Assembly (NCBI GenBank): GCA_041690105.1
Contig: JAWLHX010000003.1
Coordinates: 29,126-93,125, forward strand
Direction: 5' to 3'
From: Phycisphaerae bacterium
GTDB lineage: Bacteria > Planctomycetota > Phycisphaerae > FEN-1346 > JAACEH01
Length of the DNA stretch: 64,000 nt
This document shows positions 1,826 through 56,079 of the stretch, piece after piece. The translations under genes were made by a program, and so were the position numbers. The notes below the pieces were generated by a model. That model searched no databases and was not told where the DNA came from. It saw only the letters and a program-made list of their open reading frames with translations. Each line of letters opens with the position of its first letter. The stretch's first letter is position 1.

Positions 1826-3262
1826 GTGAACAAAGACAGTCTGCTGTTGCCCGAAGACGAAGCCGAAGAGACTGAGCCAACGCAACAGGCAGTACTTAAA
1901 GAGTCTGCCCCGCAGGCTGAGCCCGACGGCATCAGTGGCAGTGTGGGTGGCATTATTCAGTTTCTGGGTGGGCTCCATCCGTCCAAAATAGCCCTTCTTG
2001 GCTATTTATCGTATGTGGTCATCGGGTGGCTGGTGTTATGCCTTCCGATGGTGCAAGCCAGCAAGCCCATATCGGCCCTCGACAATTTGTTTACCGCCAC
2101 CTCCGCAGTCTCAACAACAGGTCTGGTAACGCTGAGCATCTCGGATAACTACAATTTCGCCGGGCAACTGATCGTGCTCGTGTTGTTCCAGCTTGGTGGC
2201 CTTGGATATATGACTTTCGGTTCTTTTGTCGTACTGTCGCGCAAAACACCCTTATCTGCAGCTCGTCAGGAGGTCGGACGAACTGTTTTCAGCCTGCCCG
2301 AATCATTCAGAATCGACAAATTCATCCGCAGTGTAATTACCTTTGCCTTTCTGATAGAGTTGCTTGGGGTGTTGGCGCTTTACCCGATATTTCGAGATGC
2401 CGGCGATCCTAATCCCATCTGGAGCGCCATCTTCCATAGCGTCTCGGCCTTTTGCACTGCCGGCTTCAGTCTGAACAACAGCAGCTTTGAAGCATACTCC
2501 GGCAACTTCTGGCTGAATGCTGTAATCGGCGGCCTGAGCTACATGGGAGCAATCGGTTTCATCGTTTTTGTAGACTACTGGCGAATGCTCCGGGGCAAGA
2601 TCAAAAGCGTGACGCTAACAAGCAAGATCATTATCTGGAGTAGCCTTTGGCTGATGCTGGCTGGCACTATTCTCCTGTTCGTCTCGGAGCCGAGCGTCCA
2701 GAATCTGCCGACCGAAGAACGATTGATGGCCTCTTTCTTTCAGTCTATGACTGCCATGACCACTGTCGGTTTTAATACGATTGGCATTTCGGGGATTTCA
2801 CGCGCCGCATTGCTGGTAATCATCGTACTGATGATCATTGGCGCATCACCATCAGGTACTGGCGGCGGACTCAAGACAACCACTTTTTCGGCCATGATAG
2901 GTGTTGTTCGCAGCGCTCTTCGAGGAGAGCATCAGGTTCGTTTCTGGGGTCGCGCAGTCCCGCTCGAGCGGGTGTGGCTTGCAATTGCAGGGCTTGGCCT
3001 GTACCTGTTCCTGCTGATAAGCGGCATCTATTTGCTGGAACTGACGGAGACGCTGGAATTCGAGCAACTGTTTTTTGAAGCTGCTTCCGCCCTGGGTACC
3101 GTGGGACTCAGTATGGGTATTACCTCGCAGCTTTCGGCCATAGGCAAAATTATTATCATCTTCCTGATGTTCTGCGGTCGACTTGGCCCACTGACCTTTG
3201 GCATTGCTCTGTTTACCCGCCCAGTGAACGAAACTGGTCATGATAACGACCTGGCCATCTAG
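1826..3262 (+). CDS. trkH: TrkH/KtrB-family potassium uptake transporter, membrane subunit
   Basis: 478 aa polytopic protein with repeated M1PM2 pore motifs and the GGGLKTTTF selectivity-like motif typical of the TrkH/KtrB/HKT superfamily. Confidence 0.85.
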   Translation: MNKDSLLLPEDEAEETEPTQQAVLKESAPQAEPDGISGSVGGIIQFLGGLHPSKIALLGYLSYVVIGWLVLCLPMVQASKPISALDNLFTATSAVSTTGLVTLSISDNYNFAGQLIVLVLFQLGGLGYMTFGSFVVLSRKTPLSAARQEVGRTVFSLPESFRIDKFIRSVITFAFLIELLGVLALYPIFRDAGDPNPIWSAIFHSVSAFCTAGFSLNNSSFEAYSGNFWLNAVIGGLSYMGAIGFIVFVDYWRMLRGKIKSVTLTSKIIIWSSLWLMLAGTILLFVSEPSVQNLPTEERLMASFFQSMTAMTTVGFNTIGISGISRAALLVIIVLMIIGASPSGTGGGLKTTTFSAMIGVVRSALRGEHQVRFWGRAVPLERVWLAIAGLGLYLFLLISGIYLLELTETLEFEQLFFEAASALGTVGLSMGITSQLSAIGKIIIIFLMFCGRLGPLTFGIALFTRPVNETGHDNDLAI

Positions 3263-3287
3263 TTTCGGGTAGAGCGAATCGTTCCGG

Positions 3288-3908
3288 CTATTCGCTCAGC
3301 GTCTCCAGATAATCGGTCAGGCTGGAGACGCGACCATCGGCGTAGACGCAGCGGCCCGGCTTCATCTTGCCCAGTTTCTCGTACAGGAGGTGCACATAGC
3401 TCTCGGTCAGGGTCTCGGCCTGCTGGCGGCCAAGTTGCTCGATGATGCTATGCACGGTTTGCTCGTCGGCGGCTTCGACTTCGGCAAACTGGCCCACCAA
3501 CGGCACCTGGTCCAGGGTAATCTCGCTGCCGTCGAGGTTCCATCGCCGGCGAATCTTCTGATAGCAGAAGACCTCAAAGTAGTTCATCCAGTGAAGGATG
3601 TCGCGCATGCCGCTGACGTCCGGCACCTCAACCTCGTGCTCCACCCGCACCTTCAGGTCGCCCACCTCGCGCGGGCCCTTGCAGGTAAGTCGCGGCGAAT
3701 GGTCGCCTTGCCGGGCGGCCTCGTCCAGTGGAACATCGAGCCGCATGCGCAGGGCCATGTCCTGCTCTATCAGCCTCTGCTCGGGGTGGTCGAAGAAGAT
3801 GTCCGTCTCCGACCAGGCGCCCCGATAGGTGGCTCCCAGCCGATCAATGGCCGCAACAAAGGCCGCCTCATCGTCAACACGCACTTTGGTCTCAATCTCT
3901 TTTCCCAT
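3288..3908 (-). CDS. CYTH-domain protein (class IV adenylate cyclase / triphosphatase-like)
   Basis: N-terminal EIETKVRV matches the CYTH ExExK signature; ~200 aa is typical of CYTH proteins. Confidence 0.6.
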   Translation of the reverse strand: MGKEIETKVRVDDEAAFVAAIDRLGATYRGAWSETDIFFDHPEQRLIEQDMALRMRLDVPLDEAARQGDHSPRLTCKGPREVGDLKVRVEHEVEVPDVSGMRDILHWMNYFEVFCYQKIRRRWNLDGSEITLDQVPLVGQFAEVEAADEQTVHSIIEQLGRQQAETLTESYVHLLYEKLGKMKPGRCVYADGRVSSLTDYLETLSE

Positions 3909-4107: not shown

Positions 4108-5175
4108 TCAGGAAATACGGACTTCGCGGCCCGTCTGGCTCGACTTATACAGACCGTCAATCACCTTCTGCACAATCAGCGCCTCTTCGCCCGGAATCGG
4201 CACCGGCTTGTCCTCCAGCAGGGCCTCGGCAAAGCCGGCAATGGCTGCCCCGTGCGGCTGGCGGCGGTCCTTGACGAATTGCGGCGTGCATTCCATCAGG
4301 TAGCCATTCTCTTCCAGAGTAATCTTCAGCGGACTGATGCTGGCCCCGCCCTTGTCGCCGACAATTTCGGCCGAAAACTTCTCTTCGCTCAGGTTGACGC
4401 AGAAGGCGCTCTCGATCATCATTGTCTGCCCGCCCTCGAAACGCACCAGGGCCACGGCAAAATCCTCAACGTCGTACGTGCTCCAGTCCCACGGACCAAA
4501 GGCCCCGATATGCCCGGGCGTCTTGCCAATGGTCTCGTAATACTGGCCGCTCACGCTGACGGGTTTCGGTTTGCCCATCAGGTACCAAGCCATGTCGATG
4601 CTGTGCACGCCGATGTCGATCAGCGGGCCGCCGCCCTGTAGCTTTTTCTGGCCGAAGACGCCCCAGCTCGGAACGCCGCGGCGGCGGATGCTGTAGCTGC
4701 GCGAATAATATATGTTGCCCAGTTTGCCAGCGTCGACCATGTCCTTGATGCACTCGACCTCGCCGCGGAACCGATTGTGCAGGCCGATCATCAGCTTTTT
4801 GCCGGCCTTCTTGGCGGCGGCAACCATGCTGGCGCCCTCTTTGCCGGTCAGGGCCATCGGCTTTTCGCAGTAAACATGCTTGCCGGCGGCAAAGGCTGCC
4901 AGGGCGGTCGGTTTATGGTCGTAGTTGGGCGTGCAGATGTCAATGACGTCGATCGACTTGTCGCTGAGCATCTCCTTCAGGCTCTTGCAGACGGTCGGAA
5001 TCTTGAACTCGGCGGCCATGGTCTCGGCCCTGCTCAGGTCAATGTCGAAGCAGGAGACAACCTTGGCGTTGGCAACATTGGCCCAGCCCGGCAGATGAGT
5101 TCCGCGAGCAATGGCACCGGTACCGACCAGACCAACACGAAGCTGCGTATCCATTATCAGCCTTTCTTTTTGCAA
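4108..5175 (-). CDS. Gfo/Idh/MocA-family NAD(P)-dependent oxidoreductase
   Basis: N-terminal Rossmann LRVGLVGTGAIARGTHLPGW and the EKP motif (HVYCEKPMALT) typical of Gfo/Idh/MocA dehydrogenases; 355 aa. Confidence 0.85.
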   Translation of the reverse strand: MQKERLIMDTQLRVGLVGTGAIARGTHLPGWANVANAKVVSCFDIDLSRAETMAAEFKIPTVCKSLKEMLSDKSIDVIDICTPNYDHKPTALAAFAAGKHVYCEKPMALTGKEGASMVAAAKKAGKKLMIGLHNRFRGEVECIKDMVDAGKLGNIYYSRSYSIRRRGVPSWGVFGQKKLQGGGPLIDIGVHSIDMAWYLMGKPKPVSVSGQYYETIGKTPGHIGAFGPWDWSTYDVEDFAVALVRFEGGQTMMIESAFCVNLSEEKFSAEIVGDKGGASISPLKITLEENGYLMECTPQFVKDRRQPHGAAIAGFAEALLEDKPVPIPGEEALIVQKVIDGLYKSSQTGREVRIS

Positions 5176-5325
5176 TGTGCCGCCCGCTGACAGCCAGAGT
5201 TCAATGCCACGCCCAGTTTCATTTCATCGCCCGTTGCACTGGAAAAGTCCATGAAAAATGGACGCCCCATGATGAGGCGCCCCCTGCGAATCTGAATCAG
5301 CGAAATAATGATGCCAACCGGACCG

Positions 5326-5472
5326 TCAAGCTACGTTAGGAAGCTTGCGACCCATGCTGCGACGGCGGTTGATCATCTTGCGGCCGGCCGGTGTCTTCAT
5401 CCGGCTGCGGAAGCCGCACTGCCGCTTACGTTTGATATAGCTCTTGCGAGGCTCTCTGTGACTGAATCCCAT
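5326..5472 (-). CDS. rpmH: 50S ribosomal protein L34
   Basis: Own translation of minus strand: MGFSHREPRKSYIKRKRQCGFRSRMKTPAGRKMINRRRSMGRKLPNVA. Matches the L34 consensus (KRxxxHGFRxRMxTxxGRxxLxRRRxKGRKxL); AAGGAG RBS 8 nt upstream. Too short for the ORF track. Confidence 0.85.
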   Translation of the reverse strand: MGFSHREPRKSYIKRKRQCGFRSRMKTPAGRKMINRRRSMGRKLPNVA

Positions 5473-5695
5473 CGCTGCTTCTCCTTCCGTATCAACACTA
5501 CGCCAACTTCGCGGATAATTGCGAGTCCGGCATTCTATCGACCTTGCCAGAGGCTGTCAAGCGCCAGTTTCGGTCCAATTGTTTTAGTTGCGTTGACCTG
5601 CGGCTCAACAATCCCTTATAATCCCCATCATCCACATGACGACGTCCGGCAGTTCCCGGTTTCGTCGCATAACAGTCTGAAGCGGGGGCAGAAGC

Positions 5696-8071
5696 ATGCG
5701 TAACCAGCAGTTTTTAAACCACAAGTTGATTCATCGGTCAGTAAGTCGCCAGGCAGCAGCGTTTATTGCCGCCCTGCTGTCGCTGGTGCTGCTGCCTGAA
5801 CCTGCAACCGGCCAGATTCCTCTCCCCCCGCCCCCCGGGCATCCGCAAGGCCCTGCGGTGGCGGCACCAAGGGGGCCCAGCAACAATCTCAATACAAATG
5901 ATAAAAGCAACCCCAGCAACTCGCGCAGCACGGTTGACGCCAAAGAGCTTGCCAAAGCCATCGAAAAAGGCGCTAACTGGTTGCTCCAGCAGCAGTTGAA
6001 TGATGGCAGCATCAATGGCAGCGATGATGATACAGTTTTTGCCGCCATTGCAATGCTGGAGTGCGGGGCCACGGTGCGTTCGCCGGCAATTCAAAAAATG
6101 CTGGCCTACCTGGCCGCCCAGCGCAGCCGCGAGACGCGCTTTATTGCTCTGCGGGCAGAAGCCTTTGCCCTGGCCGCGGCAAGCGGAGGCCCGGCTGCCC
6201 GCCGCATATACGAACCGCTCGTAGCAGCCGATTTCAAAGTAATCCGCGAAAATCAGGACGAAAATGGCCTGTGGCAATATCGCGCCAGGCGAAATGCCGA
6301 CGTCGGGGTAACTTTCGATGTCGTGTGTGCAGTGCAATCGTGCGCCGCCGAAGGCTATCGCCTGCCCGATGCTGCCCTCCAGAACGTCATTGCTGCTTAC
6401 TTTTCGCTGCAGAACCGCAATGGTGGCTGGAGCTACAGTCCGGACGGGCCGGACCGGCAGATGAGTTTCCCCGACAGCACCATGAGCGCCCTTGCCTGCC
6501 TCATGGCCTACGGCCTCGACCCGAGCGGGACCGACGACGCCACCCGGCTCAACGACAAGCTGCAAACATCCATACAGTCGGGACTTACGTTCATGACAAA
6601 ATCGATCTCGCTGCGCGATGAAGCAAGGGGGCGGGACGATCGCGACCGAGGCTTCTATTCTCGTGCCTACATCATCGGCCGCATGCTCAAATACGTGGAC
6701 CTTGAGTCGCTGAGCAACGCCAAAATCGTTGCCGAGTGGGTGAATCCGGTAATGGCTCGCCAGCAGGACGATGGCCGCTGGCGCGGAGTCCGCGAGACGG
6801 CCTTCGTGCTCTACATGCTGGGCCAGCTCCGGCCGACGCCCATTATCGCCGAGATTACCGACACAACCAAGCCCCCCACCGCCAACCGCCTGCTGGTCAA
6901 CCAGACCAAAAGCCTGTCGCGGGCCCTGCCGCAACCTGTAACCTATTGCCGCGCAAGGCTTTCGGAGGACGAGCGGTACATGGACCTGCCCCTGATTGTG
7001 CTGGACGTGCCGGAGGACTGGAAACTGGCCGCCGAGGAGAGGCAGAACCTTATCGATTACGTGGCCGGTGGCGGAACGATTCTGCTGATTGCCCCCCTCC
7101 AGCAGCGCGAGGAGGCCGCCGCCCTGGCCGAAAAGCTGGCCGAGTTGTGGCCCCAGACGCCTCTGGAGGCCCTGCAGCGTAACGACCCCATGTGGACCGC
7201 TCGCGAGACGCCCAGCACAAAACCCATCTGCCATGGCCTCAGCGATGGCGTCCGCACGTTTCTGTTTGCCCTGAACAGGCACACGGCCATCGAGCTGGCT
7301 TTCGGCCGCTACGGTACGCGTGGCAGCAACATGGCCACCATCAACAACATTCTGGCCTATGCCTCCGAGGGCCGCTTCGAGTCCGGGCAGTTGCTGGCCG
7401 AAGAGCCTGCCGATACCGCCGAGCCGCAAATTGGCCCGCAGAAGATCGTGGCCATCGGGGCGGCGACGGCCGAAGAATCCGATTTTCAGAAGCTTGGCCT
7501 GCCCGTTGCTCCGTACAACGGTTTTGCCGCGGCCGCCGGCCTGTTGCCCGCCAGCGCCGGTGTGAAGGTGCTGGGGCCCAAAGCCATCAATGCCGCCGAT
7601 GAGAATCTGGGTCTGTGTGACCTGCTTTACGTGCCCATTTCGTCCAGCACGGATTTCAGTCAGGATGAGCTCGACGGCTTGAAGAAGTACATTGCCGAGG
7701 GCGGTTTCGTCTTCATCGAGGGCCGTGCCGGCGAGCTTGCCGCCGACCGTAACACGAAGAAAATCATCGACTCCCTTGGCCTGAAGGCCGAGAGCGTCCG
7801 CGACCACAGCCTGCTTTCCGGCCAGTTTGCCGACCCGGCCAGGGGCTACAACGTGCAGCAACTGGCCGTCCGGCAAGATGGCAAACTGCTCCCGGCCCGC
7901 AATACCGACCTCCGGGTGCTCAAATCCGGCGAGCTCATTGTCGGCGTTTACAGTCCGCTGGATCTGGTCGTCTCGGCCAGCGGCATACCCTGCTTCGGCC
8001 TCCGCGGCTACGCCACCAACGACGCCCGCCGCATACTGGCCAACCTGATTATCCACCGCACCACGCGCTGA
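5696..8071 (+). CDS. Large secreted two-domain protein: N-terminal prenyltransferase/squalene-cyclase-like alpha-toroid repeats, C-terminal DUF4159-like (class-I glutamine-amidotransferase-like fold) domains
   Basis: Signal-peptide-like N-terminus (AAFIAALLSLVLLPEPATG). KAIEKGANWLLQQQLNDGS and repeated GxW / Q-W motifs of the terpenoid cyclase/prenyltransferase repeat family. C-terminal LIVLDVPEDW...GGTILLIAP and YIAEGGFVFIEG blocks resemble DUF4159 / ThuA-like domains common in Planctomycetes. The antisense 772-aa ORF is a shadow. Confidence 0.6.
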   Translation: MRNQQFLNHKLIHRSVSRQAAAFIAALLSLVLLPEPATGQIPLPPPPGHPQGPAVAAPRGPSNNLNTNDKSNPSNSRSTVDAKELAKAIEKGANWLLQQQLNDGSINGSDDDTVFAAIAMLECGATVRSPAIQKMLAYLAAQRSRETRFIALRAEAFALAAASGGPAARRIYEPLVAADFKVIRENQDENGLWQYRARRNADVGVTFDVVCAVQSCAAEGYRLPDAALQNVIAAYFSLQNRNGGWSYSPDGPDRQMSFPDSTMSALACLMAYGLDPSGTDDATRLNDKLQTSIQSGLTFMTKSISLRDEARGRDDRDRGFYSRAYIIGRMLKYVDLESLSNAKIVAEWVNPVMARQQDDGRWRGVRETAFVLYMLGQLRPTPIIAEITDTTKPPTANRLLVNQTKSLSRALPQPVTYCRARLSEDERYMDLPLIVLDVPEDWKLAAEERQNLIDYVAGGGTILLIAPLQQREEAAALAEKLAELWPQTPLEALQRNDPMWTARETPSTKPICHGLSDGVRTFLFALNRHTAIELAFGRYGTRGSNMATINNILAYASEGRFESGQLLAEEPADTAEPQIGPQKIVAIGAATAEESDFQKLGLPVAPYNGFAAAAGLLPASAGVKVLGPKAINAADENLGLCDLLYVPISSSTDFSQDELDGLKKYIAEGGFVFIEGRAGELAADRNTKKIIDSLGLKAESVRDHSLLSGQFADPARGYNVQQLAVRQDGKLLPARNTDLRVLKSGELIVGVYSPLDLVVSASGIPCFGLRGYATNDARRILANLIIHRTTR

Positions 8072-8395
8072 CCGGCGGCCGTTGTCGTTCTAAAGCCCCC
8101 TGCACTGCAGGGGGATGTCGTTGCCGTTGCTTCTTTTGATTTAAACTCGCGGAGTTGCTGCGTTTCGATCCCCCGGCAATGCCGGGGGCTTCAAAAGGCC
8201 TTCGCCACGGTGGGCGTTGCCGTTGCCGCGGCCGTTGTCGTTCTAAAGCCCCCTGCACTGCAGGGGGATGTCGTTACCGTTGCTTTCTTTTGATTTAAAA
8301 CTCGCGGAGTTGCTGCGTTGCGATCCCCCGGCAATGCCGGGGGCTTCAAAGGCAACGGCAATGGCAAAGGCAACAGAAACGGGCCGAGGGGCCAG
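8072..8395. repeat. Tandem duplication (2 x ~150 bp) of a GC-rich two-hairpin intergenic repeat element (type 1)
   Basis: Unit GGCCGTTGTCGTTCTAAAGCCCCCTGCACTGCAGGGGGATGTCGTTGCCGTTGCTTCTTTTGATTTAAACTCGCGGAGTTGCTGCGTTTCGATCCCCCGGCAATGCCGGGGGCTTCAAA occurs at ~8077-8215 and ~8229-8365 at >90% identity. Contains two 9-bp-stem hairpins (CCCCCTGCA/TGCAGGGGG and CCCCCGGCA/TGCCGGGGG) and GTTGCCGTTG / CAACGGCAA runs. Confidence 0.8.
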
Positions 8396-8462
8396 ATGCC
8401 CCCCGGCACTCACGGCCAGGATGGCCGTGCCACCGGGTGAAGAAGCATTGCCGATGGTGCGT

Positions 8463-9596
8463 TTAATCGGCCGTTGCGGTGCTCCAGGTGATGGTGACTG
8501 GTTGGCCGTCGGGCATTATGTCTACCAGTATGTTGCCCTCGGCGATGCGCGTGGTCAGGGCATTTGCCGGGGCGGCGTCGCCCTGGACTGTGGCCCGGGC
8601 GCTGGTGGCCTGTGGGGCGGGGATGACTACGGTCAGCGGCACCTGGAAGACGTCGGCCGGCTCAAGACGGGTGGCAATGCTGAGGCGGATTGAATTCTCA
8701 CCGCGTTCGATAACCTCCAGCCTGGCTGCCTCGCGGGCCCGAATGTAACGGCCAATCGTCCCCATGGGCGCTATCCAGATGGTATCTTTCTGCGAATCGA
8801 GCCACTGGCAGTGAGTGCGGAATTCGTCTTTGCTCTTAAAGGGCGACCAGCCGGCACCGACGATGGAATGAATGATGGCCACAAACCAGCCGCCCTCGTC
8901 GCGGCAGGCGATGATTCTCTGCCGTGTCCGCTCGTCGTCCCACTGCCGCCTGTCGGTATTGCCGTAGCCGGCGGTTGTCATAATCGGAAATTGAGCCGAA
9001 CTGCGGATGAAGTAATGCTTTTCGAGGATCTTCCGTCGCACGTTTTCGGTGGCCCTTGAGCCGCCTGGCAGAGCATAGGTTACGGGCGTGACATCGGTCT
9101 TCTCCCTGATCAGCCGCCAGGACTCGTTAATCAGGAAACCGAGCCGCTCGTCGGTGGCCTCGTGCAGCTTTTCTTTGATGGCCCCATGGGTGCCGATTTC
9201 GTGCCCGGCGGCATGCAATTCCTTGGCCTGCTGCCAGGAGATCATGTTGCCGCCCATGGCCGGGTTTTCCATGTGCATGGGGATGAGAAAGAAGGTGCCC
9301 TTCAGGCCTAGAGGATCGAGAATTTCGCGGGCGTCGGCCACCTCCTGCCGAAAGCCATCGTCGAAGGTCAGGCTGAGTGCGCCCCGGCGATTTCCGTAAT
9401 AGTCGGCAATTCTCGGCATGATCTGCTCCTTCTGGCCTTCATCTTGGGGCGCAGCCAGTTTAACGACGGGCGCTGCGGCCGTGGCCAGCGCGGGATCGGT
9501 GCTGGCGGTGGTCCCGGCATCATCGGGCCGGCATCCTGTGCTTACGATACTGAACAATACGACCATCATGGCCAGCGTTGCGATAGTTCTCAGCAT
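8463..9596 (-). CDS. Polysaccharide deacetylase (CE4 / NodB-homology) lipoprotein
   Basis: NodB motif LTFDDGFRQ; N-terminal lipoprotein-like signal (LFSIVSTGC). Confidence 0.8.
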   Translation of the reverse strand: MLRTIATLAMMVVLFSIVSTGCRPDDAGTTASTDPALATAAAPVVKLAAPQDEGQKEQIMPRIADYYGNRRGALSLTFDDGFRQEVADAREILDPLGLKGTFFLIPMHMENPAMGGNMISWQQAKELHAAGHEIGTHGAIKEKLHEATDERLGFLINESWRLIREKTDVTPVTYALPGGSRATENVRRKILEKHYFIRSSAQFPIMTTAGYGNTDRRQWDDERTRQRIIACRDEGGWFVAIIHSIVGAGWSPFKSKDEFRTHCQWLDSQKDTIWIAPMGTIGRYIRAREAARLEVIERGENSIRLSIATRLEPADVFQVPLTVVIPAPQATSARATVQGDAAPANALTTRIAEGNILVDIMPDGQPVTITWSTATAD

Positions 9597-22780: not shown

Positions 22781-23040
22781 CCCGTTCCTCTTCTCCTCCC
22801 GCCCTGAGCCCTGTCGAAGGGCTTGACGGGAGAGGAGTTTCTTTACACTTCTCCCTTGACGGGAGAAGGTGGACCGTAGGGCCGGATGAGGGTGCGGCCG
22901 TGGGCGCAAGAGCGAGCAATTTTCCGCGCAGCCGTCACCCCCACCTGTCTCCGGCATGTGCCGGAGACATCCTCCCCCGTCAAGGGGGAGGGGTTAGCGG
23001 CAACGGCAACGACGAACGGCAACGGCAATTGCTCTTGACA
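22781..23040. repeat. Type-2 GC-rich intergenic repeat element (copy A, with internal 40-bp duplication) plus CAACGGCAACG run
   Basis: Shares with 38750-38950: CCCGCCCTGAGC...CGAAGGGCTTGACGGGAGA...AGGTGGNCCGTAGGGCCGGATGAGGGTG...CACCCCCACCTGTCTCCG...CGGAGACATCCTCCCCCGTCAAGGGGGAGGGGTT...GGCAACGGC. Contains the hairpin CCTCCCCC-GTCAA-GGGGGAGG and the palindrome GTCTCCGGCATGTGCCGGAGAC. Confidence 0.75.
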
Positions 23041-38749: not shown

Positions 38750-38950
38750 CTGTCGTTACCCTTCTCACCCGCCCTGAGCTCCGCCGAAGGGCTTGACGGG
38801 AGAAGGTGGCCCGTAGGGCCGGATGAGGGTGAGGTTGTTGAGAGGGCGAAGAGCTTTCCTCGCGGCCGACACCCCCACCTGTCTCCGCTTCGCGGAGACA
38901 TCCTCCCCCGTCAAGGGGGAGGGGTTTAACGGCAACGGCTGAGGCTGAGA
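38750..38950. repeat. Type-2 GC-rich intergenic repeat element (copy B) between ispA and dxs
   Basis: ~85% identical over shared blocks to 22781-23040, including the CCTCCCCC-GTCAA-GGGGGAGG hairpin, the CACCCCCACCTGTCTCCG block and the terminal AACGGCAACGGC. Confidence 0.75.
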
Positions 38951-43287: not shown

Positions 43288-43289
43288 TG

Positions 43290-43575
43290 GTGCTTGCGGC
43301 GGTAGATTAAGAGGCAAGGCAACGGCAGAAGAAACTTGCGTTTTTTGGCGTGCGGACATGGCAGATAAGCACCCACAAACGAGTTTGTGGGTGGCACCCG
43401 CGGGGGATTAATACGGCAACGGCAGAAGAAACGGCGTCCCCCGGCAGTGCCGGGGGCTTCAACGGCAACATCAACGGCAACGGCAACAGCAGCAACAATC
43501 GCAGAGCAGCAATAATCGCAGAGCAGCGGCAGTCGCAGAGATGCAGCAGCGCTTGGTATGGCGGTGGCAATTAGC
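43290..43575. repeat. ~290-bp repeat-rich intergenic region inside the por operon (type-1 hairpin fragment, direct repeats, 11-bp-stem hairpin)
   Basis: GCACCCACAAACGAGTTTGTGGGTGGC perfect hairpin; CAACGGCAGAAGAAAC x2; CCCCCGGCAGTGCCGGGGGCTTCAACGGCAAC (type-1 hairpin); AATCGCAGAGCAGC x2; CAACGGCAAC runs. Confidence 0.75.
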
Positions 43576-43585
43576 CTGATTCGAG

Positions 43586-45069: not shown

Positions 45070-45400
45070 ACTTCGTCAGACCATGGCACAGATTTATCCT
45101 TCTTCTAACCATCTTCCGTTTGGCCTTTGAAGCCCCCGGCACTGCCGGGGGATTCGAATGTCAGCAAACTCCGCGGGTCCAAAACAAAGAAGCAACGGCA
45201 ACGACATCCCCCTGCAGTGCAGGGGGCTTTAGAACGACAACGGCCGCGACAACGGCAAGGGCCTCCCGCGGCGAATTGTTTTAAGCCCCCGGCACTGCCG
45301 GGGGATCGAACGTCAGCATTCTCTGCAATTCGAATGAGCACCCGGCGGCACAAAACATTAACGTCAACAGCAACAATCAACGGTCGCGGCGGCGGTAGAG
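45070..45400. repeat. Type-1 two-hairpin repeat element in reverse orientation, plus a second partial copy
   Basis: 45121-45250 is the reverse complement (~85-90% identity) of the 8077-8215 unit (GAAGCCCCCGGCACTGCCGGGGGAT...AAGAAGCAACGGCAACGACATCCCCCTGCAGTGCAGGGGGCTTTAGAACGACAACGGCC). A second hairpin copy lies at ~45285-45310 (AAGCCCCCGGCACTGCCGGGGGATCGAACG), and CAACAGCAACAATCAACGG runs follow. Confidence 0.8.
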
Positions 45401-53901: not shown

Positions 53902-54600
53902 ATGAAGTATGCAACTGGGGCCGTCGGAATCGTGTTGTTGCTGCTGGTAGCAACTGGCAGCGCTTCCGGGGCTTTGACCGACTGGGGCAGCGGTCAGGTC
54001 AGAATGGTAACTGACGCCGATGAAGGGTTCATGCCGGGGCGTGAGATTTTACAGGCCTGGCACAAATACGATGCCGGCACGCACTATTTCCGGATTGACC
54101 TGGAGACGGCGCCCATGGGGCCGCCGCATTTGCCGCCGAGCTTTGCCGGCATTTATGGCTTTGCCATCAATACGGACCTTGCCAGCGGGGCCGACGGCTT
54201 TCATCCGTACCTGGCTTATGCCCCGAACGTGCAGAACATCGATTATCTGATCGATGCCCACTATGAATCGTTTTCGCCGTACCCGAATCCGGCCCAGTTG
54301 CTGTACAGCCATTATCACGACTGGGAGGATACGGCGTTTGCGGTCGAGCCGCTGGACAGCGTTGGCGGGCAGTTCCAGCGCAGCGGACCGAGCACGCTGG
54401 AGTGGTCCATTGCGGATGATCTGATCGGCAGCCCGGGAGCCACGAGGTTCAGCTGGTGCGCCTACAGTCTGGATGCCGGCAGCGAGACGGCCAAGTATGA
54501 CCTGGCCTGCTCGTTCATACCGGAACCTCTGACAATGCTGGCTTTCGGTATGGGGCTGGCTGGCGTGGGCGGTTATGTGCGCCGCAGGATTAAAGGCTGA
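53902..54600 (+). CDS. PEP-CTERM-anchored secreted protein, paralog A (uncharacterised ~200-aa domain)
   Basis: Signal peptide (VGIVLLLLVATGSASGA); C-terminal IPEPLTMLAFGMGLAGVGGYVRRRIKG PEP-CTERM sorting signal; ~55% identical to paralog B. Confidence 0.75.
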   Translation: MKYATGAVGIVLLLLVATGSASGALTDWGSGQVRMVTDADEGFMPGREILQAWHKYDAGTHYFRIDLETAPMGPPHLPPSFAGIYGFAINTDLASGADGFHPYLAYAPNVQNIDYLIDAHYESFSPYPNPAQLLYSHYHDWEDTAFAVEPLDSVGGQFQRSGPSTLEWSIADDLIGSPGATRFSWCAYSLDAGSETAKYDLACSFIPEPLTMLAFGMGLAGVGGYVRRRIKG

Positions 54601-55380: not shown

Positions 55381-56079
55381 ATGAACAAACTGCGTGTACT
55401 GACAACTTTGATTGTGCTGTTGCTGATGTGTAGCCCATCGTGGGCGGCGTTGACAGATTGGGGCGTTGGAGCTGTTGAGCATGTTGCCGATCCGGATGAG
55501 GGCTTCATGGCCGGCCGCGAAATTCTTAATGCGTGGCACAAGTACGACGTGGAGAGCCAGATGCATTTCTTCAAGATGGAGCTGAAGGCTGCTCCGATGG
55601 GGCCTGTCCATCTGGAGCCGAGCTTCGCCGGCATCTACGGATTTGCCCTGAATACCGACCTTGGCACGGGTATTGACGGCTTTACGCCGGGCTTGACCTA
55701 TGCTCCGAATGTGCCTTCGATTGACTATTTGATTGACGCGCATTACGAGTACGCGGGCATTCTGGCTGCTCCGCCTGCCTTCCAGGTTGCCCATTATCAT
55801 GAATGGGACGAGCCGCTTTTTGTTACCGAGAATCTGCTCTCGATTGGCGGCGACTATGCACGCACCGGCAAAGTTCTGGAATGGGCCGTGCCAGACAGCC
55901 TGATCGGCAACCCCGGTTCCGAGCGGTTCTCCTGGTGCGCCTACACGCTTGACGGCGGCAGCGAGACGGCCAAGTATGACGTGGCCTGCTCGGTTATTCC
56001 GGAGCCGCTGACCATGGCTGGTCTTGGTCTGGGGCTGGCCGGCGTAGCGGGCTACCTGCGTCGTCGCAAAGCGGCCTGA
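55381..56079 (+). CDS. PEP-CTERM-anchored secreted protein, paralog B
   Basis: Start at ATG 55381 (MNKLRVLTTLIVLLLMCSPSWAALTDWG; AGGGGGA RBS); the track ORF begins at 55018 in the same frame. C-terminal IPEPLTMAGLGLGLAGVAGYLRRRKAA. Shared blocks with A: ALTDWG, EGFMxGREILxAWHKYD, PSFAGIYGFAxNTDL, IDYLIDAHYE, RFSWCAYxLDxGSETAKYD. Confidence 0.75.
   Translation: MNKLRVLTTLIVLLLMCSPSWAALTDWGVGAVEHVADPDEGFMAGREILNAWHKYDVESQMHFFKMELKAAPMGPVHLEPSFAGIYGFALNTDLGTGIDGFTPGLTYAPNVPSIDYLIDAHYEYAGILAAPPAFQVAHYHEWDEPLFVTENLLSIGGDYARTGKVLEWAVPDSLIGNPGSERFSWCAYTLDGGSETAKYDVACSVIPEPLTMAGLGLGLAGVAGYLRRRKAA

Follow-up and report, generated by a model that had tools for sequence, protein, structure and literature searches.

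A BIME-like array of oriented palindromes in planctomycete DNA, probably cognate to one clade of class 3 Y1 HUH transposases

REP, BIME and REPIN systems, like the Y1 enzymes that belong to them, are well known; to our knowledge, REP/RAYT systems have been well studied only in Gammaproteobacteria. For the GTAG- and CGTC-tagged REP superfamilies, stems of 8–9 bp, the dominance of one type of inverted dimer and a scarcity of head-to-tail dimers have been described (Di Nocera et al. 2013, BMC Genomics 14:522, PMC3733652). Class 3 TnpA_Y1 genes, found mainly in Planctomycetes and Acidobacteria, are flanked by repeated secondary structures in a REPtron-like manner (Quentin et al. 2018, BMC Genomics 19:475, PMC6006769). 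This class rests on one 2018 survey covering 24 proteins, which gave as its signatures NHVH, W[TA] and the Tyr motif YV[VI][AENY]EQ within a profile of ~155 aa whose N-terminus is strongly conserved, and described the flanking structures as "atypical" and weak, with a CnGA foot (CnGAGCCGCGACCGTnAGGGAGCGG) (PMC6006769). No later work on class 3 Y1 enzymes was found in a full-text literature search. The tandem array described here lies in a 64-kb stretch of planctomycete DNA, all of which was analyzed and which is referred to as the window, and is probably a BIME-like cluster of REPs whose family is cognate to one clade of class 3 Y1 HUH transposases.

The array was detected by TRF at positions 8075–8410, with a period of 153 and 2.2 copies, and contains two 153-bp units arranged in tandem, head-to-tail (8075–8227 and 8228–8380, plus strand). 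The sequence-only reading from which this work started had described two ~150-bp units of >90% identity directly after the stop of a large gene, and both statements proved accurate. Global alignment of 8075–8199 with 8228–8353 (~125 bp) gave 96.1% identity (122/127), with the value for the full 153-bp units being only 84.7% because their final ~28 nt diverge. The array begins 4 nt past the TGA stop (8069–8071) of a gene encoding a 791-aa protein with DUF4159 and prenyltransferase-like domains (5696–8071), and its far end is found ~80 nt short of the 3' end of a convergent polysaccharide-deacetylase gene on the minus strand (8463–9596), the site being intergenic and located between a convergent gene pair. 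Unit 1 consists of a REP(+), here called A, a 55-nt spacer, a REP(-), called B, and a linker with a GTTGCCGTTGCC end; alignment to this unit and the TRF period both define unit 2. Four perfect 19-nt palindromes, two per unit, are found in the array (8096–8114, 8170–8188, 8249–8267 and 8325–8343), each of which corresponds to an 8-bp stem with a 3-nt loop.

The two palindromes of a unit had been read as two different hairpins, a description that has to be revised: they represent a single ~24-nt oriented motif, AAG-CCCCCNGCAYTGCN'GGGGG-AT, present in opposite orientations, and each unit is a REPIN-like heterodimer of one REP. Hairpin A with its flanks reads AAG-CCCCCTGCACTGCAGGGGG-AT and hairpin B, on the opposite strand, AAG-CCCCCGGCATTGCCGGGGG-AT; reverse-complemented, B matches the A motif everywhere but at the loop centre and at one covarying position of the stem. 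The basic unit can be written as AAG-CCCCCNGC-AYT-GCN'GGGGG-AT, comprising ~24 nt with a G+C-rich 8-bp stem and a 3-nt loop, and every copy has 0–1 mismatches to the 24-mer in one orientation and 2–3 in the other. Oriented in this way, the array comprises REP copy 1 on the plus strand (8093–8116, AAGCCCCCTGCACTGCAGGGGGAT; 0 mismatches on the plus and 3 on the minus strand), copy 2 on the minus strand (8168–8191, reading AAGCCCCCGGCATTGCCGGGGGAT on that strand), copy 3 on the plus strand (8246–8269) and copy 4 on the minus strand (8323–8346).

Hexamer runs flank the hairpins, of the GTTGCC type on the REP(+) strand and of GGCAAC on the opposite side, as the earlier reading had also noticed. The sequence (GGCAAC)2 occurs nine times in the window compared to 0.7 expected, and eight of these nine occurrences are located beside hairpin modules. 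The right arm of unit 2 is such a GGCAAC-type run (8347–8375, plus strand), identified from inverted repeats, folding and hexamer counts as the complement of a GTTGCC run at 8216–8242. Unit 2 together with 8216–8227 thereby forms an imperfect long palindrome of ~160 nt, in the order GTTGCC runs, REP(+), spacer, REP(-) and GGCAAC runs. In both the DNA and the RNA fold of the array, 8216–8242 paired with 8347–8375 and REP A with REP B in unit 2, and in the RNA fold each A paired with its own B; the z-scores of the array fold were -5.5 as DNA and -4.4 as RNA. No Rfam family reached its gathering score anywhere in the window, and no tRNA or tmRNA was found in it; on the array, Rfam gave only weak matches at chance level (miRNA models, and CRISPR-DR9 with 23.8 bits against a threshold of 45). 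A CRISPR array, which had been excluded from the letters alone, is not supported, seeing that successive repeats switch orientation and that the putative "spacers" recur as well.

Further copies were located beyond the array at 43438–43456, 45133–45151, 45208–45226 and 45286–45304. The pattern CCCCCNGCANTGCNGGGGG has 8 matches in the 64-kb window compared to 0.05 expected from shuffles, which bears out the overrepresentation previously claimed for this stretch, and a search with the 24-nt pattern allowing three mismatches found no additional degenerate copies in the window. All eight copies are intergenic and distributed over three sites, two of which lie between convergent genes. The order of orientations is +,-,+,- at the first locus (the array), a single (-) at the second, and +,-,+ at the third. 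The REPs are separated by two types of recurring linkers, a 55–57-nt "inner" spacer and a 60-nt "outer" linker, which alternate.

The third locus, on the minus strand at 45123–45318, was recognized by an inverted-repeat search and alignment as an inverted copy of 1.5 array units, comprising REP(+) at 45130–45153, REP(-) at 45206–45229 and REP(+) at 45283–45306. Its order is B-linker-A-spacer-B, inverted relative to the first locus, and it is located where the kor-gamma and sulfatase genes converge. The inverted copy that had been suspected near 45070–45400 is thus real. It shares 83.7% identity overall with the array, including one stretch of 62 nt with 100% identity, which could reflect gene conversion between the two loci instead of transposition.

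The second locus, where a partial copy had been suggested at 43420–43460, holds a singleton REP with one mismatch to the 24-mer (43436–43459, minus strand) within the 298-nt spacer between korA and korB. Next to it are GGCAAC runs (43460–43487) and a 17-nt tandem repeat (43488–43549), and the spacer contains another hairpin in addition to these elements. In the nearest retrievable kor operons, the corresponding spacers are 37 nt (L154, 81% KorB identity) and 20 nt (L155, 73% KorB identity). The difference between 20–37 nt and 298 nt indicates an insertion, and the comparison is to be taken as supportive and not decisive because the operons come from different species (73–81% protein identity).

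The search was extended from the window to related genomes, which are what the wider copy count covers. In contigs representing one genome per species of bacteria and archaea, AGCCCCCNGCANTGCNGGGGGA was found at at least 73 loci, and nearly all of the matches listed came from several MAGs of Planctomycetia, Planctomycetales or Planctomycetota. The taxonomy of these MAGs, the nearest named KorB homologs and genes of the window such as those for sulfatase and DUF4159 all make a Planctomycetota origin of the window most likely. The sixth stem position was left unconstrained in the scan pattern; among the matches listed it nevertheless forms a Watson–Crick pair in 91 of 95 copies, among which each of the four pair types occurs (A:T 39, G:C 38, C:G 12, T:A 2), and 87 of the 95 have C or T at the loop centre when read in REP orientation. 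The stem covariation and the bias at the loop centre therefore show that the hairpin is maintained and that the element is intrinsically oriented. The foot is asymmetric and conserved, with AAG on the 5' side and AT(G) on the 3' side, and by eye no GTAG, GTGG, CGTC or CnGA foot was present in the aligned flanks. Where copies in other genomes lie next to each other (n = 12 among the matches listed), nine pairs are (+,-) and none is (-,+). Elsewhere the family occurs mostly as singletons of ~25–45 nt, and most copies are found between genes according to a rough GC3-based gene call.

The largest share of the matches listed came from one MAG, bin-6114, in which the copies are singletons within a longer conserved unit, TTCTTCTTTTGAAG-hairpin-ACGCTGTTTCTT, surrounded by T-rich simple sequence of equal polarity on both sides. 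The intergenic mosaics of bin-6114 also hold canonical GTAG REPs (e.g. GTAGGGGCAGAGTTTATCTCTGCCC), and with such REPs existing separately in related MAGs, the window-type family is a distinct one that resides alongside them. No class 3 gene was seen among the bin-6114 loci listed. A class 2 RAYT-like gene of this MAG (L014:107-802; 71 bits against the NF047646 cut-off of 80) was considered as a cognate enzyme and rejected because its flanks carry no window-type REP; the GTAG REPs of the same MAG are its more probable partners.

These locations and flanks bear on whether the hairpins are instead RNA elements selected by the host, i.e. non-mobile terminators or 3'-end stabilizers placed after genes. 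REPs of E. coli stabilize upstream mRNA, and such a role would agree with two of the three sites in the window lying between convergent genes, where transcripts arriving from either side meet a (+,-) doublet in the same orientation, as well as with the T-rich 3' flank of REP(+) in bin-6114. Against this, a consensus scan called none of the REP hairpins terminator-like, since no T-run directly follows the stem; the terminator-like hairpin that the scan did call, at 8407–8383, is one of two hairpins outside of the REP family next to where the minus-strand deacetylase gene ends (8383–8429, minus strand; hairpin and terminator scans). Furthermore, singletons in other genomes show no orientation bias with respect to transcription (19 sense, 16 antisense, p = 0.74), and one copy of the window sits within the korA–korB operon. 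Without a U-tract or an orientation bias, and with an intra-operon copy, a role at the RNA level is not supported as the primary explanation, and it would also leave unaccounted for a ~60-fold concentration of the repeats at a Y1 transposase gene and the clade-specific hairpin types described below. We consider it improbable as such, and it may be a secondary effect compatible with a REP family that has a cognate transposase.

That enzyme was identified by a motif screen and tblastn of REP-bearing loci, which yielded two ORFs of 162 aa (L073) and 163 aa (L031) sharing 64% identity, each with a window-type REP on both sides. Both match Pfam Y1_Tnp above its cut-off of 23 (32.5 bits for L073 and 32.8 bits for L031). 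A scan of metagenome contigs with the L031–L073 alignment gave 491 relatives, of which 80 loci were kept and 77 full-length proteins clustered. In the cluster containing L031 and L073 (n = 18), a window-type REP is found within 400 nt of the gene in 18/18 cases and on both sides in 13/18, and the ~14 kb of flanking DNA carries 82 hairpins compared to 7 in the 71.5 kb outside, a ~60-fold higher density. The genes of the next cluster (n = 14) are without exception accompanied by C5 stems with loops of 4 nt, and those of a more distant one (cluster 7, n = 13) by GCCGCGA(N)CGTNAG(N)GAGCGG in 9 of 13. The hairpin type thus tracks the protein cluster, being of the 3-nt loop, 4-nt loop or classic class 3 REP type. 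In the most common layout (8 of the 80 metagenomic loci), a REP(-) is located ~30–39 nt before the ATG and a REP(+) 12–15 nt past the stop, so the gene is bracketed by inverted REPs.

The consistent link to a Y1 HUH gene, and not to one for a DDE enzyme, also bears on whether the ~150-bp unit could be a MITE, i.e. a deletion derivative of a DDE-type IS with terminal inverted repeats that is mobilized by that IS. The inverted arms of the ~160-nt imperfect palindrome at unit 2 and the inverted copy 37 kb away would fit such an element. The singletons of 25–45 nt that dominate other genomes are too small for it, no IS was seen near the copies in the window and no related IS was found, and no target-site duplications are visible around the aligned copies, though their flanks are of low complexity. 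An origin as a MITE is not supported by these observations and appears very unlikely, and of the initial description as a REP/BIME- or MITE-like family it is the former half that is supported, on account of an oriented palindrome that alternates, is intergenic and dispersed, and is linked to a Y1 gene.

The co-variation of hairpin type and protein clade likewise weighs on a reading in which the motif is a DNA-level site for protein binding or recombination (e.g. a nucleoid-protein, gyrase, uptake or dif-/att-like site) that is under selection and spread by recombination only. BIMEs of E. coli bind IHF and gyrase, and the conserved asymmetric flanks of the motif would suit a site of this kind. 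Neither the bracketing of the Y1 gene nor the partition of hairpin types among protein clades is explained by it, however, and the stem covariation favors a folded single strand over a duplex recognition sequence. We hold this to be very improbable, and return to the REP family and its presumed cognate enzyme.

The enzyme is ~155 aa long, and in the family alignment H90, H92, W130 and Y151 are invariant, with N89, T131 and an N-terminal block, YFLTWTTYGTWLPGD, being nearly so; the conserved motifs are NHVH for HUH and YVxxQ for the Tyr motif. An AF2 model (pLDDT 89.9) predicts an IS200/IS605-type Y1 HUH fold, and the top 30 Foldseek hits in the PDB are all IS608, ISDra2 or IS200 TnpA or the E. 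coli RAYT 4ER8, at a probability of 1.00. The NCBIfam RAYT equivalog NF047646 was not reached (27 bits against a cut-off of 80). When compared to the printed signatures of class 3, the enzymes agree in NHVH, in a W followed by T, in a Tyr motif that closes with Q, and in the ~155-aa length and the strongly conserved N-terminus, as they do in a Planctomycetes host and in a gene flanked by repeated structures that are also found elsewhere in the genome. In addition, the GCCGCGA(N)CGTNAG(N)GAGCGG repeat of the distant homologs is the repeat type of class 3 entries in Table S1 (PMC6006769). Two features differ: the Tyr motif is YVxxQ here in contrast to the printed YV[VI][AENY]EQ, and the window-type REP has a perfect 8-bp C5-stem, a 3-nt loop and an AAG...AT foot in place of the CnGA foot.

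Several of the properties of the REP systems of E. coli and Pseudomonas are found again here, namely a short oriented extragenic palindrome, alternating clusters with recurring linkers, inverted doublets that fold as one long hairpin, inverted REPs bracketing a Y1 HUH gene, and a REP that co-varies with the enzyme, for which the structural model matches the E. coli RAYT 4ER8. Unlike in those systems, a GTAG or GTGG foot is absent, the enzyme falls outside the class 2 RAYTs, strand-polar GTTGCC/CTT tracts are present and the host belongs to the Planctomycetota. With the GTAG/CGTC superfamilies, the family shares the stem length, the dominance of inverted dimers, heterodimers of units with different stems and the intergenic location (PMC3733652), but neither tag is found at the foot of the window-type REP. 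The IS200/IS605 elements IS608 and ISDra2 are similar in their Y1 HUH fold, which gave the best PDB matches, and in having subterminal hairpins as recognition elements; in contrast to these, the hairpins flanking the gene here are multiple and inverted relative to each other, gene-free copies are far more numerous than the gene itself, and there is no tnpB. The window-type REP family is thus a new family of a kind of repeat that is already known, and not a new kind of system. It is set apart from published cases by its strong C5-stem, a foot lacking GTAG, CGTC and CnGA, the polar simple-sequence flanks and a clean partition of hairpins among enzyme clades.

Taken as REPs with a cognate Y1 enzyme, the repeats suggest a mechanism in which the (+,-) pair would be a REPIN-like doublet. 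On ssDNA, for example at replication forks, the enzyme would recognize the hairpin together with the asymmetric foot, as do the enzymes of IS200/IS605 and the TnpA_REP of E. coli, and by cleavage and rejoining it would spread REPs or doublets to intergenic DNA in trans. Mobilization by this enzyme, and the single-stranded route in particular, are what we infer from the association of hairpin and gene and from the predicted fold. Local slippage or unequal recombination could then enlarge the clusters: the doublet with its linker would have been duplicated in tandem to give 8075–8380, with an inverted copy of the higher-order unit at 45123–45318, the tandem expansion and the inverted second copy being attributable to slippage, recombination or gene conversion. 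For the host, the repeats may have effects such as the protection of mRNA 3' ends. More tentatively, the C5-stem repeats and the class 3 Y1 enzymes may together constitute a distinct, widespread and so far uncharacterized REPtron lineage of the Planctomycetota in which the hairpin type was switched with the enzyme clade, and in which the GTTGCC/CTT tracts either arise as a by-product of the insertion mechanism or are required by it, a feature not known for classical REPs. If true, this switching would provide a natural series of HUH enzymes re-targeting DNA hairpins.

A recognizable hairpin family is now linked to one class 3 clade and to many planctomycete genomes and metagenomes, and its oriented 24-mers offer concrete substrates for biochemistry. 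The repeats also account for long structured intergenic spacers, one of them inside an operon. They probably fragment metagenome assemblies, and many of the contigs bearing homologs of the enzyme are only 0.6–3 kb long. At E ≤ 1e-5, 1,877 proteins match the enzyme, and homologs are named "REP element-mobilizing transposase RayT" by JGI and "transposase" by NCBI.

No Y1 transposase gene was found in the 64-kb window, and the source genome may be without the cognate enzyme. One ORF of the window (5308–5703) showed a weak tblastn match to a RAYT-like protein (E = 4.4) but had no Pfam or NCBIfam support, and was rejected for that reason. Synteny with the L073 locus was also considered; the 791-aa protein encoded next to the array and the 774-aa protein encoded next to the L073 transposase gene share only 20% identity, and are paralogous members of a family, which speaks for no synteny between the two loci. 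On a longer contig (L156, 619 kb), the transposase gene sits between dnaK and clpB, a position that may hint at a single-copy, vertically inherited gene, and its flanks carry heterodimer doublets with GTTGCC/GGCAAC arms in the same architecture as the unit of the window.

At locus L073, one of the retrieved loci carrying the Y1 transposase gene, a 23-nt unit (CCGGGGGATTATTTTTCCCACA) corresponding to a half-REP plus spacer is repeated seven times in tandem (3262–3430), with a REP on one side and the beginning of the Y1 gene on the other. This arrangement suggests that the hairpin's 3' half underwent slippage or repeated cleavage and joining. At L084 (3468–3603) and L082 (4497–4571), REPs that all share one orientation form direct tandem arrays 3' of the Y1 gene, with a period of 28–39 nt; these superficially resemble CRISPR arrays, but their "spacers" are identical. 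At L086, a REP copy is located within the transposase reading frame itself (4363–4381), and comparable in-gene copies have been reported for another subclass (Quentin et al. 2018, PMC6006769). Many contigs in the list of Y1 homologue matches span just 0.6–3 kb, which fits the idea that short-read assemblies of metagenomes are broken by REP arrays at Y1 loci.

The MAG with the most REP copies among the matches listed, bin-6114, was found to encode a separate class 2 RAYT-like protein (L014:1–802), scoring 71 bits against the NCBIfam RAYT model NF047646 (below its cut-off of 80) and 40 bits against Pfam Y1_Tnp; the 3' end of the gene is partly duplicated (1–79 equals 164–242). As canonical GTAG REPs, e.g. 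GTAGGGGCAGAGTTTATCTCTGCCC, are also present in this MAG, at least two REP systems therefore coexist there. The same MAG contains a match to a second composite intergenic repeat of the window, termed type 2, which occurs at 22798–22995 and 38768–38926 with segment identities of 82–100% between the copies. The type 2 repeat comprises three hairpins, including CCTCCCCCGTCAAGGGGGAGG, and both copies are followed by runs of the GGCAAC hexamer. Its core, CTTGACGGGAGAAGGTGGCCCGTAGGGCCGGATGAGGGTG, shares 86% identity with L004:5868–5925 of bin-6114, where a REP lies about 60 nt away.

The REP-containing korA-korB spacer (window 43288–43585) holds further elements, namely a 17-nt tandem repeat with approximately three copies of AGCAGCAACAATCGCAG (43488–43549) and an unrelated perfect hairpin, CACCCACAAACGAGTTTGTGGGTG (43370–43393).

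Among the matches listed, L013, L025, L029, L035, L043, L053 and L065 are of non-planctomycete origin, belonging to Clostridia RGIG1656 (four contigs), Rhodocyclaceae, Rhodoferax and Chthonomonadaceae. These matches have AAAG-CCCCCGGCATTGCCGGGGG-ATGNTTAC in common, with similar flanks, and at L013 a Y1_Tnp gene is found about 4.3 kb away. The occurrence of this sequence outside the planctomycetes could reflect either a shared mobile element or chance.

Elsewhere in the window, a 188-nt direct repeat with 76% identity (54397–54584 and 55876–56063) lies within two adjacent predicted genes, which are probably paralogues. The GC skew rises from around zero to between +0.1 and +0.2 near 34–36 kb and stays positive to the window end (approximately 34000–64000).
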